This document shows, piece after piece, positions 18,001-24,000 of a stretch of 29,601 nt of DNA. Source of the DNA: a virus. Lineage: Duplodnaviria; Heunggongvirae; Uroviricota; Caudoviricetes. The DNA lies in IMG/VR virus record IMGVR_UViG_2657245500_000006, positions 1 through 29,601 of that record. One strand, 5' to 3'. The position numbers were made by a program. Position 1 is the first letter of the stretch, and each line of letters begins with the position of its first letter.

Positions 18001-21000
18001 CTTCAATTCAGGCGAATATGCAGATGCTTCTGTCCGGGGGCATGATGGCAAAGGCAAATCTCCTCAGGGGATGAGCATCAGGTATCGTTATGAGATAACG
18101 GATGAGATTGGTGTTATAACATCTTTTACATGGGCGCGTTCTATGACTAATGCGCAGGCATTTATTGATATTAACCCAGGAGATGAATCCAGAGAGGTTA
18201 AAAATCCGGCAGCTTCAGCGAGAACTGATATCAGGGCTAATTACTGGAGTCTACTATCCGGTCCTTCGTGGCGGTTTAACGAATACCTCAGTGTGTATGC
18301 AATGGCTGGTATGGGCGTAGCTAAAGTTACCGCTGACCTGAAAATTAAGGACAACATTAACAGTACCGGTGGATTTTCTGAAAGCAACAGTACGAAAAAA
18401 ACAGCACTTGCATGGGCTGCTGGTGCACAATTTAACCTGAATGAAAGTGTTGCTATGGATGTCGCGTATGAAAGCTCCGGATCTGGTGACTGGCGCACGA
18501 GCGGGGTTGTTGTAGGTATTGGCCTGAAATTCTGATCTGTATCCGACAACATGTCATAACCCGCTGTGATGGCGGGTTTTTTGTTGCCCGTGCAGGGCAA
18601 AAATCGTAGATTATGCGCGGGTGCCTTTCGGCTGATGGCTGGAGGGAGAACCTGAAGGCCTGATGTGGAAAGGCCCCGAGTCAACTTTAATGTTAACCCG
18701 AGGCCCTGACCGTACAACCTTCACAAGTAGTAGGTTAGCGCCTCTCCACTCAGGAGACAAGCGTTATGTCGCAAAAATCGCTCATCACCGTCACAATTTG
18801 TATGACGGTAATCTTCACCATCTGGATGTTACACGGCTCGTTGTGTGAGTTCCGGCTGAATTTGTGGGGAGCGGAGTTTGCGGCGTTCTTACAGTGTAAG
18901 CAGTAGGAAAACCGCGACGGGGACGAAAGTCCCCGTCAACTGGTTGCTGAGGTTCAGCCGATATGGCACCCGTTTCAGGTGAGAGAATGGACGACAAAAT
19001 TCTCCGGTATATGCAGCGTGTTGTGAGAAATTCCCGCAACCCTGAATTTATGAATGAAGTTAAAGACGCCTGCCTTAAAAAGCAGGCGTTTTGCTTTGAA
19101 GCGCCGGATGGTTTTCTGGTGCTGCGTTCTGTGCTCAGTGACGATGGTATCCCTTATGTTCTGGTGTTACTGGGCGTGTGTACGGGGAGTAAGAGTGTTG
19201 AGCGTTATCTGCCGGAGGTGAAGACATTAACCCGCCTGGCTGGCGGACGCTGGGCCGAATTTCATACGGCAAGACGAGGATTTATCCGGCTGGGAAAACG
19301 TCTGGGCTTTGAGCGAATGCCGGATGATGAGGATGGCTTCATGGTGTTCAGGATAGCAGTCTGACTGCCACTGTATTCATCATCGAGCGTAAACCCACAT
19401 TGCAATTCACATTCTGACCCTGCTCCGGCAGGGTTTTTTGTTATCTGAGGAGCCATTATGGGCGGAAGTAAAGGTGGTGGTGATACCAAAGTAAAACCAA
19501 CAGCAGCGCAAATAGCACAGGAAGAGGTGGCCTGGAAAGGGTGGCAGGATTACAAAAATATTCTCCGTCCGGCAGAAGATAACTTCATGAAAAAGGTCGA
19601 TGACCTTAACAGTGAGCAGCAGTACGAAAATATCGCAGGCACAACAAATCTTGGGTATCAGAAACAGTTTGGTGAAGCGCGAAGGGAGCTGGCGGGTAAT
19701 CTTGCTCAGTCCGGCGTTGACCCATCCAGTGGTCGTTTTAATGCAGTAATGGATGCAAATCAAAGCGACCAGGTGATCGGGCAGATTGACACGACCACAC
19801 GGGGGCAGGTATCGCAGGCAGATAAATATATTGCCGGGCTACAGGATGTTGCGGCTCTCGGTTCCGGTCAGAAGGCAGATGCGTTACAGAGTTTTAACTC
19901 GCTGGCAGACAGCAGTCTGGCAAAAGCTAAATCGGACGCACAGGCTGCGTTTACGAAACAGCAGGGGCGAGCCTCTCTTGTTGGCGCTGGTCTGGGTGCG
20001 GTTGGTGCATATGCGATGCATAAGGCTGGCGGTAGCGGAGGAAGTGGCGGTGCTAAAACACCTGGCACCGGCGCTAATGCCATTCAGCATCAGGCTCAGA
20101 ACTGGAGACTGTGATTATGGAGTACGGTAAATACGAAACTCTCGCAAGGGCTGGTTATTCAGGAGCAGCCCGCCCACAGGGTGACTGGCAGACGTCAGCA
20201 GCGCTGACACGCCAACAATACGACGACTGGCGAACCAGATATTTGCCCCGCGTGGCAAGGCTGGCTGACCTTGGCGAGAACAACAGCCTGATGAATGCGC
20301 AGCTTGCCCGGGTGGGCGGCCTTGCCACTTCCAGTCTCCGTACAGCGCAGATGGCGCAGGATAACCAGATGGCACGATATGGCGTTAACCGACCTGATAA
20401 TCCCAACAGTAATACGCTGGGGTTACGTAATGCCCTGGCAATTGCTGGCGCGAAAAATGGTATCCGTGAAGCAGAGCAGGATCGTCAGATGAACATACTG
20501 ACGGGGGCTTCTGCACCTGCAAGACAGCAACTGAGTGTTGGCGGACAACTGGTGTCAGCGTAAGGAGGAAATATGGGATACGGTTTACTGGATATTGCGA
20601 ATCAGTCACGGCGTGAGGCATTACAGGGAATAAGTGATGCAGACAGACGACGTGAAGAAATTGAGGCGTCAAACAAGATGATGGCGGCGCAACAGAAAGC
20701 ACAGCACAAGCAGAATATTGGAACGGGAATTGGTAGCGGTGCTGCTGTGGGGGCTGCCGTTGGTGGCCTTCCCGGTGCCGCTATTGGTGCAGTCATCGGT
20801 GGTCTTGCTGGTTCGTTGTTTTAAGGAGTGGTGAATGAGCGGATTTGCACAGGGGTTACTTGCCGGATTCAGCACTGTTGACCAGGCAATGACCCGTCGT
20901 AAGGAGCTTGGTTTGCGAGAAGCACAGCTTGCTCAGCAACAGAAAAATAACGAGCGCGATTTTGAGTTTGCGCAGTCGCAGTTTGAACATAATAAAAACG

Positions 21001-24000
21001 TTGATCAGCGTGACTTTGATTACAAAGCCAAAGTTGATGACCGTGATTATGCACTGCAGGAAAGGGAGTTTAACGCCAACCAGAATTACCGGAATGCGTC
21101 GCTGGGTATGGAGCAGCAGCGACTCCGGATGCAGAAATACAACCAGCGACGGCTTGAGTATAACGATATGCTGGCGCGCGATCAGCCTGTGATGGCGGCG
21201 CTTGGAAAGGCTGTGGATGCTGGCGATCGGGATGCCGCAATGCGTCTTTACGGCCAGTTGTCAGAGGGTAATCCGCTGAGGCTGATGGCGAATGATGGCT
21301 ATGTAGCGAAAGCGGGTCAGGCCGTGAACAACCTGCAAAAAATCTTTGATGACAAGCCGGACAGGGCTATCGCTTCACTTAATACGCCGGAGAATCTTGA
21401 TGTCCTTTCCGGGGTGTTTGGCCCGGAACTGCAACAGCGTATTGGCATGCCCGATTCAACCGGGAAAAAGACGATAAAAGAGGCCAGGATTGGCAGTATC
21501 GTACCGGCGCAGCAGGAAGGGTACGTACTTATTGGCCTTGATCTCACATACAGCGATGGCTCCACCGCGCATAAACCTGTAACAGAATACGGCAGTGCAC
21601 ATCCTGATGATCAAACCGTGCTGGCGGTGCCTGTTGATAAGGCTGTTGAGCTTGTCAGGGATCGCAGTAAATTCGCGGAAATTTCGAAAAATTTCGGTTA
21701 TTTCACGCCGAAGCAGGAGGGGCTTTCTCTGAAAGATATTCAGAAAGAAGCCAGCCAGGTAGCAGCGGAAGCGATCAAGAACGGCGGTAATGCTCAGGCT
21801 GCGAGGGATGAATTTTTAGCTGCGCATGGTTTACCGGAATATCAGCAGAAAATTCAGCAACAGAAATTTGAACAGCTTTTACAGAAGGGGCAGACCTGGG
21901 CGGAGGGCGATCCGGTCAAACTGGAGTTTGTCAAAGCGACTGCCGCCAATATGCCAGCCTTGCTGGAACCGGGGCGTGAAAAGGAACTGGAAATTTGGTA
22001 CCAGAATCACCTCCGGGATAAAAAAGCCGAACAGGAAAAAGCGAAGAATTATAGCGCTGCTGCATCAGCCGAAGAGATCAGAGGCTGGATGAAGTAAAGT
22101 TACGCGGCAGTAACGCGCTCCCCGTTAATATCGTTCACTTACGCCCGACCATCGTGTCGGGCTTTTTTTTACTGGAGTCTGTATGGCTTTTTCAGATGAG
22201 CAGCGCCCTGAAGCGCAATTGGGTAACCAGAACCGCAGCAGCCTGAACATTAAGCAGCCGGGAGAAAATTACTGGCAGGATTTTTTCAGCAACCCGCAGA
22301 ATGCCATTGATCACAGCACATCGTTCAGCCTCGGTGATGTATTGCCAACAATGGGTAAAGGTTTCGCCCAGTCCGTCCGGGGAACAGGGGAGATGGTCCG
22401 TGGACTCGGTGATGGATTTGTAAATAATCCTGTAAAAACGCTTGCCGGGTTGTCGTCTTTCATGACGGATGTTTACATGCCGCCTTCCTCCACGCAAAAG
22501 GAACTGGGCGCGCCACCTTCTGTTGGAGATGCGATTAAAAACATTCCCGATGGAACAGGTAAAAACGCGGTCACTGATACTGTCGGTGAAGGTCTGAAAG
22601 CAACCGGTAAGGCAGTCAGTGATGGTGCCAAAGCCTCGGATGAATGGCTGACAGATCAGATGTCGCCGGGTGCTGTTCGTGCGCTGAACACGCCAATGAG
22701 TGAAGGCTATGATGATTCTGCGGTCTTGCTGACGAAGGGTGTAAACCTGATTGGTGCGCTTGTACCTGATCTGGTTGCTGGCGGTGTGGTTAGAAAGGTG
22801 GGACAGGTCGCACTGAAAAGAACGCTGACCGCCGGGCTGGAGAAAAAATACATCGCGGCAGGAGTGCAGCCGGAAAGAGCCACGGCACTGGCAGCAGAAG
22901 CTGTCGATAAAAAAATGACGGATTTCTTCCATGCGGGCCTGATCACCCATTCCACAGCCAGTGCACAGGGGCAGAGTGCAATGTCGGCAGCAGATGCTGT
23001 TCTTAATGCGGATTACGCTGAGCTGGCGCAGTCACCGAAATTTCAGCAGACGTTTTTGTCAATTGATGCAGATCCACAGCACGCACAGCTTACTGATCGC
23101 CAGAAAATGGACCTGGCAAAAGAGCGTGTTGCCGATGAGGTGCGCGCGCAGCTGGCAACCGATCCTGAATTGCTGGCTGTGAATGCCATGGCGGCAAAAC
23201 TGGGTGACGCACAACTGTTTAATCTGGTGACACGAGGCACAGCGAAGACCGTTAAAAGCGGCATTGTCAGAAATGCCACGGAACAGGGCGTAATTAACGG
23301 GGCACAGAACGCCTATTCGCGCTATCAGGAAAACACGGCATTGCGTGAGACCGCCGGAATGGATGTGTCACCGTGGGAGGGCGTGGCTGACGCAACGATC
23401 GAAGGTGCAGCCTTTGGTGCTGCGATGGGGGCTCCATTCGGTGCGGTTGCCGGATATCGTGGCAGACGTCAGGCCGCAGAAGAAGCAGCCATGCGTGATG
23501 CTGAAACCGTGCAGCAGGACGACGCAGCCCCGCAACCCGAACCGGTTGATCCGGTGGCACAGCATCGTGAATCCATGCAGGGGATGAATCGCGAGCAGCT
23601 TCTGGAACAGTATGCTGATGCGGATATGGCACATGAGGGAGACACGTCTGCCGTTCATCGCCGGGAAGCCGCCAGCCAGCTGTTGAATGAACTGGATGAA
23701 CAGGCGAAGCGACAGGCGGTAATGGATGAGCTGAAGGCGAAGCCGCGCCCTGAACTGCTTGAGGAATACCGAAAACTCAGCCTGAAGGAAGGGCGTACTG
23801 ATACTGAAGAGCAGCAGTTACAGGCTATCCGTGATGTGCTTCGCCCTCAGCAGGAGGCCAGACCGGAGGCACAGCCACAGCCGGAAAATGCGGATGATGG
23901 CGACGGGAGTATTTACCCGACGGTGCGGTTCCGCGATCCGGATGAAGTTCGTATTGAAATTAACGGGAGTGGTGCGTCCAGACCAGCAGAACGCATTGAA

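Follow-up and report, generated by a model that had tools for sequence, protein, structure and literature searches.

We propose that six consecutive genes in a 29,601-nucleotide (nt) stretch of viral DNA (positions 1 to 29,601 of IMG/VR record IMGVR_UViG_2657245500_000006; this whole stretch is called the window below) make up the internal-protein, or ejection-protein, module of a Sepvirinae podophage. We give this reading a probability of about 0.6. The late region of a prophage of the 933W/Sp5/phi24B type makes up the window, and we label the genes p0 to p4, followed by a giant open reading frame (ORF) that runs past the window end. On orthologs of these genes, three things have been demonstrated experimentally: the proteins are in the virion, they are absent from its ordered structure, and p4 and the giant protein are essential at a stage after DNA packaging. 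By joining knockouts of phage Sp5, the virion proteomes of phi24B and JC1, a conserved gene order, and a sequence link to gp7 of phage P22, we arrive at a candidate parts list that stands beside the giant protein: an essential 420-amino-acid (aa) protein, a helical paralog pair, and a glycine-zipper peptide. The features concerned are as follows.

18963..19364, + strand: p0, 133 aa; Sp5 ORF75, phrog_610
19416-19435 with T-run to 19441, + strand: terminator-like hairpin at the p0/p1 junction, -16.5 kcal/mol
19458..20114, + strand: p1, 218 aa; Sp5 ORF76, phi24B gp51, phrog_611
20117..20563, + strand: p2, 148 aa from ATG (150 aa from GTG at 20111); Sp5 ORF77, phi24B gp50, phrog_596
20573..20824, + strand: p3, 83 aa; Sp5 ORF78, phi24B gp49 (phi24B 47590-47841), phrog_594
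20835..22097, + strand: p4, 420 aa; Sp5 ORF79, phi24B gp48, phrog_601
22143-22162 with T-run to 22170, + strand: terminator-like hairpin at the p4/giant ORF junction, -13.8 kcal/mol
22183..29601, + strand: giant ORF, >2473 aa, running past the window end; Sp5 ORF80, phi24B gp47

A first-pass annotation made from the sequence alone had placed four tightly linked ORFs with strong ribosome-binding sites here. All four are where it put them (its 149-aa second protein is 148 or 150 aa, depending on the start codon), a Shine-Dalgarno match lies 4-9 nt 5' of each start (GAGG, GGAG, AGGAGG, and AGGAG for p1, p2, p3, and p4, respectively), and the gaps p1/p2, p2/p3, and p3/p4 are 2, 9, and 10 nt. After p4, 85 nt pass before the giant ORF begins at 22183. 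The four are genuine genes and not chance ORFs, because they match known protein families, have homologs in distant phages (22-50% identity) that keep the gene order, and have orthologs whose peptides are found in phi24B. The family matches are end-to-end, to PHROGs 611, 596, 594, and 601 (E values 3.5e-119, 2e-83, 2.6e-41, and 3e-190 for p1 to p4), all annotated "unknown function." Identity to phi24B gp51, gp50, gp49, and gp48 is 95%, 97%, 87%, and 78%, and 933W is similarly close. The lengths also agree with those of Sp5 ORF76 (218 aa), ORF77 (148 aa), ORF78 (83 aa), and ORF79 (421 aa); these Sp5 lengths, together with 2793 aa for ORF80, are from the supplementary table of Mondal et al. 2016 (PMC5155283). 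Other resources added little: Pfam and NCBIfam scans of p0 to p4 returned only the glycine zipper of p3, with no match for p0; sequence searches of the PDB, with the single proteins and with a 60-member profile of the 218-aa family, found no relatives; and Rfam and tRNA scans of the window gave no matches.

The block is common among close relatives. The 3.1-kb region matched 186 phage records, nearly all of them Shiga toxin (Stx)-converting or related Escherichia/Shigella phages, at 80-95% identity, and it was found in 425 of 5426 complete Escherichia coli genomes. Annotated relatives of the window within the subfamily Sepvirinae are ArgO145 (Oslovirus) and 933W and phi24B (Traversvirus).

The most direct evidence on the proteins themselves comes from phi24B, whose virions were analyzed by cryo-electron microscopy (cryo-EM) along with proteomics in a 2026 preprint (10.64898/2026.04.10.717836). 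Mass spectrometry of purified virions, which the first-pass annotation had suggested as a check, has thus been done on orthologs 78-97% identical to the window proteins, and it finds gp48, gp50, and gp51 at ~20-70 copies, with a low signal for gp49. The estimated copies per virion, which vary with the reference protein, are 30-56 for gp48, 22-41 for gp51, 36-73 for gp50, and 19-35 for the giant gp47 (10.64898/2026.04.10.717836). In the gel slices of the phi24B table, gp48 peaks beside the 409-aa capsid protein and gp51 beside the 234-aa adaptor, from which we read that both are present at roughly full length. These orthologs are in virions, and we found no homology to lysis or regulatory proteins.

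Despite these copy numbers, the phi24B cryo-EM model contains none of gp48 to gp51. The modeled tail consists of portal, two adaptor rings, nozzle, lateral fibers, and needle and does not need them, and gp47, gp48, gp50, and gp51 are all entered as "ND" for structure-based abundance in the supplementary spreadsheet (10.64898/2026.04.10.717836). Because these virion proteins are invisible in the map, we infer that they lie inside the particle. The phi24B authors reasoned in the same way for one protein: the preprint proposes gp47 alone as a capsid-packaged ejection protein because it is abundant yet unseen in the map, lists its organization in the capsid as an open question, and never mentions gp48, gp50, or gp51 in the text (10.64898/2026.04.10.717836). 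The Sp5 knockout paper is not cited in that preprint, and we found no paper that gives the small proteins a role.

The genetic evidence comes from Sp5, in which in-frame deletions were made in a K-12 MG1655 lysogen and the lysates were tested on MG1655 (PMC5155283). Deletion of ORF79 (p4) or ORF80 (giant) left neither plaques nor lysogens, and each defect was complemented in trans; the mutants had DNase-protected phage DNA at the wild-type level and heads that looked normal (PMC5155283). Deletion of ORF76 (p1) markedly reduced infectivity, and ORF75, ORF77, and ORF78 (p0, p2, and p3) were deleted singly, with none of them among the nine essential genes (PMC5155283). A loss of infectivity that spares packaging is therefore seen for p4 and the giant protein, in part for p1, and not for p2 or p3. 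Restriction cannot explain the requirement for ORF79 and ORF80, because producer and recipient were both K-12 MG1655.

From the failure of an anti-tail-fiber antibody to label the mutant particles, the Sp5 authors drew the conclusion that ORF79 and ORF80 function in forming the tail (PMC5155283). Tail-assembly factors, or hidden components of the tail, would indeed account for mutants that package DNA into normal-looking heads without immunogold label, and the genes adjoin tail genes. However, the negative labeling is given as "data not shown," and wild-type tails were themselves only "occasionally observed" (PMC5155283). Mutant DNA is also protected from DNase, the phi24B tail has been fully modeled from six other proteins, and a 22-nm tail is too small to conceal 20-70 copies of each protein. 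We consider a tail role quite unlikely. A further way to read proteins that are in the virion but not in a symmetric map is that they stay behind in the capsid, where they organize or stabilize the genome or the portal as an inner body or the remnant of a scaffold. The phi24B authors do raise the possibility of internal contents by which the tail's orientation is constrained in full particles only (10.64898/2026.04.10.717836). Against this, DNA is still packaged and protected from DNase as normal when ORF79 is missing, and the membrane-type hydrophobic segments described below would have no obvious purpose inside a capsid. Retention seems to us slightly less likely again than a role in the tail.

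The conserved unit is larger than the compact four-gene operon of the first-pass annotation. We fetched loci with distant members of the 218-aa family and checked homology at each position by pairwise BLAST. In these phages, the order p0-p1-p2-p3-p4-giant is kept at 22-50% identity, directly after the nozzle and central-fiber genes, with the following protein lengths.

Window: p0 133, p1 218, p2 148, p3 83, p4 420, large ORF >2473 aa (window end)
Aeromonas phage phiARM81mr: p0 119, p1 212, p2 124, p3 85, p4 466, large ORF 3190 aa
Vibrio phage 1.205.O: p0 131, p1 201, p2 117, p3 77, p4 442, large ORF 3130 aa
Metagenomic contig L004: p0 128, p1 202, p2 173, p3 109, p4 423 aa; large ORF runs off the contig
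Metagenomic contig L005: p0 none found, p1 212, p2 157, p3 86, p4 ~443-479 (start uncertain), large ORF 2481 aa

The giant ORF lies 3' of the small genes in L005, phiARM81mr, and Vibrio phage 1.205.O, and ~100 Vibrio phages carry the block. Homologs of p0 sit directly upstream of the 218-aa homolog in phi24B, phiARM81mr, L004, and Vibrio phage 1.205.O (25-42% identity, E values 1e-7 to 1e-29), and in the distant phages only 3-8 nt separate p0 from p1. The first gene of the block is thus the one at 18963-19364, so the module begins one gene upstream of the unit first described and, with the giant gene, comprises six genes. Two features of phiARM81mr can be recorded here: a retron-type reverse transcriptase gene amid the tail genes (7223-8509) and 1.86 kb with no annotated gene between the 466-aa and giant genes (17682-19541).

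The two terminators that had been taken to bracket the operon are real as hairpins, but they do not delimit a functional unit. The upstream hairpin is kept in ArgO145, 933W, and phi24B and is missing from the distant relatives, so that it is confined to Sepvirinae; the window and ArgO145 share the downstream one, which 933W and phi24B lack, their p4/giant gap being 30 nt. Both are lineage-specific punctuation, and the upstream one was inserted between p0 and p1 in Sepvirinae. Late transcription in lambdoid phages is antiterminated by Q, so read-through would be expected and the hairpins would not set an operon apart. Vibrio phage 1.205.O also has a strong terminator-like hairpin and, after it, AT-rich sequence between its 442-aa and giant genes (14919-15033; -27.4 kcal/mol for the whole gap), and a terminator at the p4/giant junction therefore arose in at least two lineages.

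Beyond the phages that keep the full order, the nozzle protein family reaches podophages of Ralstonia, Burkholderia, Erwinia, and Sinorhizobium, and here Bcep22 and JC1 (Lessievirus) are true relatives, with a homologous nozzle, a gp70 homologous to p1/p2, and a giant protein that follows. After its nozzle gene, Bcep22 encodes gp70 (331 aa) and gp74 (532 aa), both "virion-associated," and then gp75 (4602 aa). The gp70 protein matches the 218-aa family at 97.8% probability (E value 8e-13) and the 148-aa family at 90%, and gp74 has an N-terminal GAFAQGL motif and its position in common with p4. In CsCl (cesium chloride)-purified JC1 virions, mass spectrometry detected gp64, gp68, and the giant gp69, which are the counterparts of gp70, gp74, and gp75; the JC1 acetyltransferase at the p0 position was not detected in virions (PMC9144972). 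There are differences from the window: gp70 combines in one 331-aa protein an N-terminal hydrophobic segment and a Gly-rich hydrophobic C terminus of its own, acetyltransferase and PAPS reductase genes are interleaved, and the role assigned goes no further than "virion-associated." In Bcep22, these interleaved genes are an acyl-CoA N-acyltransferase-like gene (8114-8545) and a PAPS-reductase-like gene (9545-10273), both among virion-protein genes. The acetyltransferase occupies the p0 position, and sequence similarity to p0 was not detected. A tblastn search for a p1 homolog in Ralstonia phages found none (phage GP4 was outside its scope).

What do the small proteins look like? The 218-aa p1 had been described as a Gly-rich, low-complexity protein, which holds for its ends (GGSKGGGD and GGSGGSGG) and not for the rest. 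AlphaFold, run with a 60-sequence alignment, predicts four long helices (residues 16-50, 53-84, 92-147, and 153-190), with predicted local distance difference test (pLDDT) scores above 90 for residues 11-130 and low confidence in the Gly-rich ends; a Gly/Ala hydrophobic segment lies at 172-190. The family is large and uniform in length: 382 clusters at 50% identity among 1.84 billion representative proteins are related to p1, nearly all of them 185-250 aa. The most hydrophobic stretch of 15 residues averages above 0.8 on the Kyte-Doolittle scale in 44 of 60 family members, at a median position 78% along the protein, and 54 of the 60 also match phrog_8003, "virion structural protein." Fold comparison by Foldseek against the PDB gave generic long helical hairpins only, at E values >0.1 (EmrA, Vipp1, the TcdA1 channel, and IpaB), and we make no use of the membrane flavor of these matches. 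Against BFVD, T7-like phages gave weak matches (E values 0.02-0.3), to their "internal virion proteins" of ~200 aa. One phage record, PQ600364, annotates the 218-aa homolog as "portal protein."

The neighboring p2 is a paralog of p1. The two families align by hhalign at 95.8% probability (E value 7e-9) over 103 columns, and p2 lacks the Gly-rich N terminus and the hydrophobic tail of p1.

The 83-aa p3 has a polar helix and then, at the C terminus, a hydrophobic glycine-zipper segment, whose last residues are a conserved LF (in most members SLF). The glycine zipper reported for this protein in the first-pass annotation is confirmed by Pfam (Gly-zipper_YMGG, 29.6 bits versus a cutoff of 28.9). 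Homologs of p3 are named "bacteriocin" in RefSeq records, and this name is one of the grounds for a different view of the block, in which p3 is a bacteriocin/microcin or a lysis or membrane moron and its neighbors are unrelated morons set off by terminators. Weak matches to Bacteriocin_IIc (18.4 bits, cutoff 27.1), MccV (E value 0.66), and the NCBIfam E492 microcin model (13.4 bits, cutoff 50) lend it something, as do the flanking terminators and the real morons nearby (Lom and Hok). But these matches fall below the curated cutoffs and are confined to the glycine zipper, and we found no double-glycine leader in p3 and no immunity or export gene nearby. The position of p3 is, moreover, fixed within a structural block in phages, lytic as well as temperate, from four host genera, and its neighbors are abundant virion proteins. 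We therefore rejected membership of p3 in the class II bacteriocins or microcins and regard non-virion accessory genes as very unlikely. The "bacteriocin" label, which rests on a below-threshold glycine-zipper match, is in all probability an annotation artifact.

This matters for the proteome, since in phi24B the annotation of gp49 ("bacteriocin homolog") led the authors to treat it as a contaminant (10.64898/2026.04.10.717836). As a member of a conserved module, gp49 may be a genuine virion protein, either low in copy or poorly digested, and its peptide signal may not be contamination. An early phi24B proteome sheet labels gp48 "Transcription factor?"; this label and the "bacteriocin" of gp49 both look like annotation artifacts. 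We suggest that "bacteriocin," "transcription factor?," and "portal protein" be avoided for these proteins.

The link to a known ejection protein runs through the C terminus of p3. In hhalign, the p3 family matches the C terminus of the P22 gp7 family at 95.7% probability (E value 9.3e-9) over 55 columns, flush to a shared ...GSLF end. The score is 54.1, compared with 14.1 +/- 1.8 (maximum 21.4) for column-shuffled controls, and since shuffling the gp7 columns lowers the score to 14.1, composition alone does not explain the match. By these profile comparisons, the C-terminal link between p3 and gp7 is established at the level of a motif. It is p3, and not p1, that bears the gp7-like glycine zipper. 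For p1, there is a weaker match to the other end of gp7: the family aligns with gp7 residues 26-81 in N-to-N register (28.7% probability, E value 6e-4, 53 columns; score 31.0, versus 18.1 +/- 0.5 with shuffled columns). The members of the p1 family that bear a leader align with nearly all of gp7, over 159 collinear columns, but at 11% probability only. According to its annotation, mature gp7 starts with KGGKGGADKS after removal of a 20-residue leader, and p1 starts with MGGSKGGGDTK. We treat this N-terminal link as suggestive. Many distant members of the 218-aa family carry a conserved leader of ~30 residues, RFxP[LI]...[FY][FY]KGGG, before the Gly-rich motif, and the analogy suggests that it could be removable, like that of gp7.

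The remaining small proteins are harder to place. In the family of p4, a variable-length polar helix is followed by a central beta-containing domain, which is the best conserved part, and a helical C terminus; the N terminus has a conserved motif, GLAxGLLAGF (GFAQGLLAGF in the window protein). The first-pass annotation called this a long coiled-coil protein, which we do not uphold: AlphaFold predicts an N-terminal helix of ~128 residues with low confidence, 51% of its residues are charged or polar, and the 3.5-residue hydrophobic periodicity is weak. A homolog search for p4 and for P22 gp20 gave near-identical sequences only, so that gp20 was compared as a single sequence, which makes this a weak comparison. 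The p0 protein is not listed in the phi24B virion protein tables. We looked for an acetyltransferase-like fold shared by p0, P22 gp14, T7 gp13, and the Bcep22 acetyltransferase and dropped the idea, as no similarity was detected (at most 2.7% in the comparisons made); the parallel is positional only.

How does the block compare with known ejection systems? The first-pass annotation saw a likeness in composition to podovirus internal core or ejection proteins and proposed profile comparison with those of T7 and P22 as a check. In single-sequence hhalign of the module proteins against T7 gp13-16, P22 gp14/gp7/gp20/gp16, and N4 gp51/gp52, all pairs were negative but two, and both of these were with P22 gp7; with the family comparisons above, a sequence link holds for P22 gp7 and fails for T7 gp14/15/16 and P22 gp20/gp16. 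The resemblance to P22 extends to layout and genetics. In P22, the genes adjoin that of the tail needle and increase in size along the series (151, 229, 471, and 609 aa for gp14, gp7, gp20, and gp16), much as the window has 133, 218 (with 148 and 83), 420, and ~2800 aa, and the P22 proteins are virion proteins needed for infectivity and not for packaging. The Gly-rich mature N terminus of gp7 and its next helix weakly match the p1 family, and a leader is likewise found in many p1-family members. In contrast to P22, the features of gp7 are spread here over two or three genes (218, 148, and 83 aa), the place of the 609-aa gp16 as largest component is taken by a polyvalent protein of 2800 aa, and two of the small genes are dispensable.

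Two other systems resemble the block in arrangement. In the N4-like phage DEV (gp73/gp72/gp71, corresponding to N4 gp52/gp51/gp50), a giant virion protein of ~3400-3500 aa is encoded beside smaller helical or membrane ejection proteins, and the small partner, which has a hydrophobic helix, is pore-forming; N4-like phages are podophages of comparable size, with T = 9 capsids reported for Moo19 and B2. This is a resemblance of layout and not membership, as there is no sequence similarity (N4 gp51/gp52 at most 1.2% by hhalign), the giant is an RNA polymerase there and an LPD5/LPD1/MuF_C polyvalent protein here, DEV gp72 forms an ordered 12-mer around the portal whereas no such density has been assigned in phi24B, and two small genes there contrast with four or five in the window. 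In T7, gp14/gp15/gp16 (with gp13) follow the tail genes in small-to-large order, and the first component is an all-helical protein of ~200 aa, comparable in size to p1. Unlike the block proteins, those of T7 build an ordered core stack on the portal, and there is neither sequence likeness (at most 0.7% by hhalign) nor significant fold likeness (Foldseek E >0.1).

The giant ORF is 88% identical to phi24B gp47 and carries the Pfam domains LPD5 (E value 4e-45), LPD1 (2e-23), and MuF_C (8e-24). Its relatives have in common a C-terminal LPD38 domain, which also appears in E. coli annotations, and they vary in the middle (ddrB-ParB, methyltransferase). LPD domains, a shared C-terminal domain, and a variable middle are a polyvalent signature, and the giant ORF is on this ground classed as a large polyvalent protein, of ~2800 aa at full size. 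Pfam found no lytic transglycosylase domain in the window portion of the giant ORF. A lysozyme-like motif at the start of the L004 large ORF was dropped, as Pfam and PDB searches gave no support.

This domain content brings in the main alternative to an ejection module, namely, that the small proteins are accessories of cargo loading, like those of the Dar system of phage P1, and recruit a giant anti-restriction or host-takeover effector into the procapsid without forming any conduit. In P1 (DarB with Hdf, DarA, DdrA, DdrB, and Ulx), a head-packaged giant multidomain protein likewise needs several small proteins for its incorporation, and the ddrB-ParB domain recurs, alongside methyltransferase domains, in relatives of the polyvalent giant ORF. 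In our block, the small genes always accompany the giant gene, and all of the products are co-packaged. However, P1 is a myovirus, which needs no envelope-spanning extension, and its Dar proteins are dispensable on non-restricting hosts, whereas ORF79 and ORF80 are essential with a host of the same K-12 strain; the gp7-like hydrophobic glycine-zipper ends also point to action in a membrane. The Bcep22/JC1 literature calls the giant protein DarB-like and suggests that the virion proteins of unknown role could be equivalents of Dar accessories (PMC9144972). We rate cargo loading as rather unlikely to be the whole function, and as the alternative to be taken most seriously. Loading and ejection are compatible and can coexist, so that this alternative overlaps with the ejection module that we prefer.

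If p0 to p4 and the giant protein are such a module, they might work as follows. During assembly, p1, p2, p3, and p4 would enter the capsid with the ~2800-aa polyvalent protein, by a route that we can only surmise, and p0, given its position and its absence from the virion tables, might conceivably be an assembly factor. Once packaged, the proteins would be disordered or arranged without symmetry inside the capsid, and hence unseen in the cryo-EM map. At infection, they would leave through the tail after release of the needle and insert into or across the envelope, where the gp7-like glycine-zipper hydrophobic segments of p3 and p1 may act in the membrane and p4, for which a ~128-residue helix is predicted, may together with the giant protein complete or drive the conduit. 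In this scheme, p4 and the giant protein are the indispensable parts and p1 an important one, and p1 and p2 might be partly redundant, which could account for the tolerance of single deletions among the smaller proteins.

It is tempting to go further and see here a six-gene ejectosome that shares ancestry with that of P22, in which gp7 has been split over p1/p2 and p3 and the largest subunit has been replaced by a polyvalent effector. The same machine would then open the envelope and deliver a swappable enzyme cargo across Stx, Vibrio, Aeromonas, Burkholderia, and Ralstonia podophages. We offer this extended version tentatively, as possible but doubtful.

Several observations weigh against an ejection module. 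Apart from gp7, hhalign found no similarity to T7 gp13-16, P22 gp14/gp20/gp16, or N4 gp51/gp52. The profile-profile support for p1/gp7 is weak (11-29%), and with HMMER the Pfam model of gp7 (PF25688) matched none of 60 members of the 218-aa family and no window protein at E <=1. Fold searches of the p1 and p4 models gave nothing specific; the p4 model is poor (pLDDT 60, shallow alignment), which makes its search against the PDB meaningless. The orthologs of p2 and p3 (ORF77 and ORF78) are dispensable in the laboratory, and Sp5 ORF79/ORF80 mutant particles were not labeled by the anti-tail-fiber antibody (PMC5155283). In the phi24B batch digest, gp49 has 6 counts, equal to Lom and so at contaminant level, and the preparation mixed full and emptied particles (10.64898/2026.04.10.717836), so the proteome cannot tell whether the proteins leave with the DNA. 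Finally, we found no experiment on release of these proteins from the capsid or on their insertion into membranes. Of the injection or ejection module proposed in the first-pass annotation, then, virion presence, essentiality after packaging, and the gp7 link stand, while release and channel formation are what we infer.

Phages with short tails that carry Stx genes spread these toxin genes among E. coli. That podophages have ejection proteins is expected, and these genes are at the usual place, so that the assignment is useful rather than surprising. The genes were already known as "hypothetical proteins" of Stx phages, as were ejection systems as a kind; new here are the explicit assignment of a role, the breadth of the module across lineages, the p1/p2 paralogy, and the gp7 link.

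The remaining genes of the window encode terminase, portal, capsid, adaptor, collagen-like lateral fiber, nozzle, and central fiber, with morons in between. A 392-aa ORF with a YadA-like anchor (11806-12984, + strand; Pfam YadA_anchor, E value 2.4e-17; phrog_9547) lies between the lateral-fiber and nozzle genes, directly after ~800 nt without a long ORF (10998-11806). It looks like a trimeric-autotransporter adhesin moron, and ArgO145 has no gene of similar size there. About 2 kb of morons separate the nozzle/central-fiber genes from the p0 to p4 block, and the Vibrio and metagenomic relatives have none at this place. Between lom and p0 is a 46-aa ORF of the Hok/Gef toxin family (18766-18906, + strand; Pfam HOK_GEF, E value 4e-8), which corresponds to the ArgO145 annotation "MokW-like host killing"; no Sok-type RNA rose above the Rfam threshold. 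The Lom/Ail outer-membrane protein moron itself (17804-18578, + strand) has its own terminator-like hairpin at 18558-18578.

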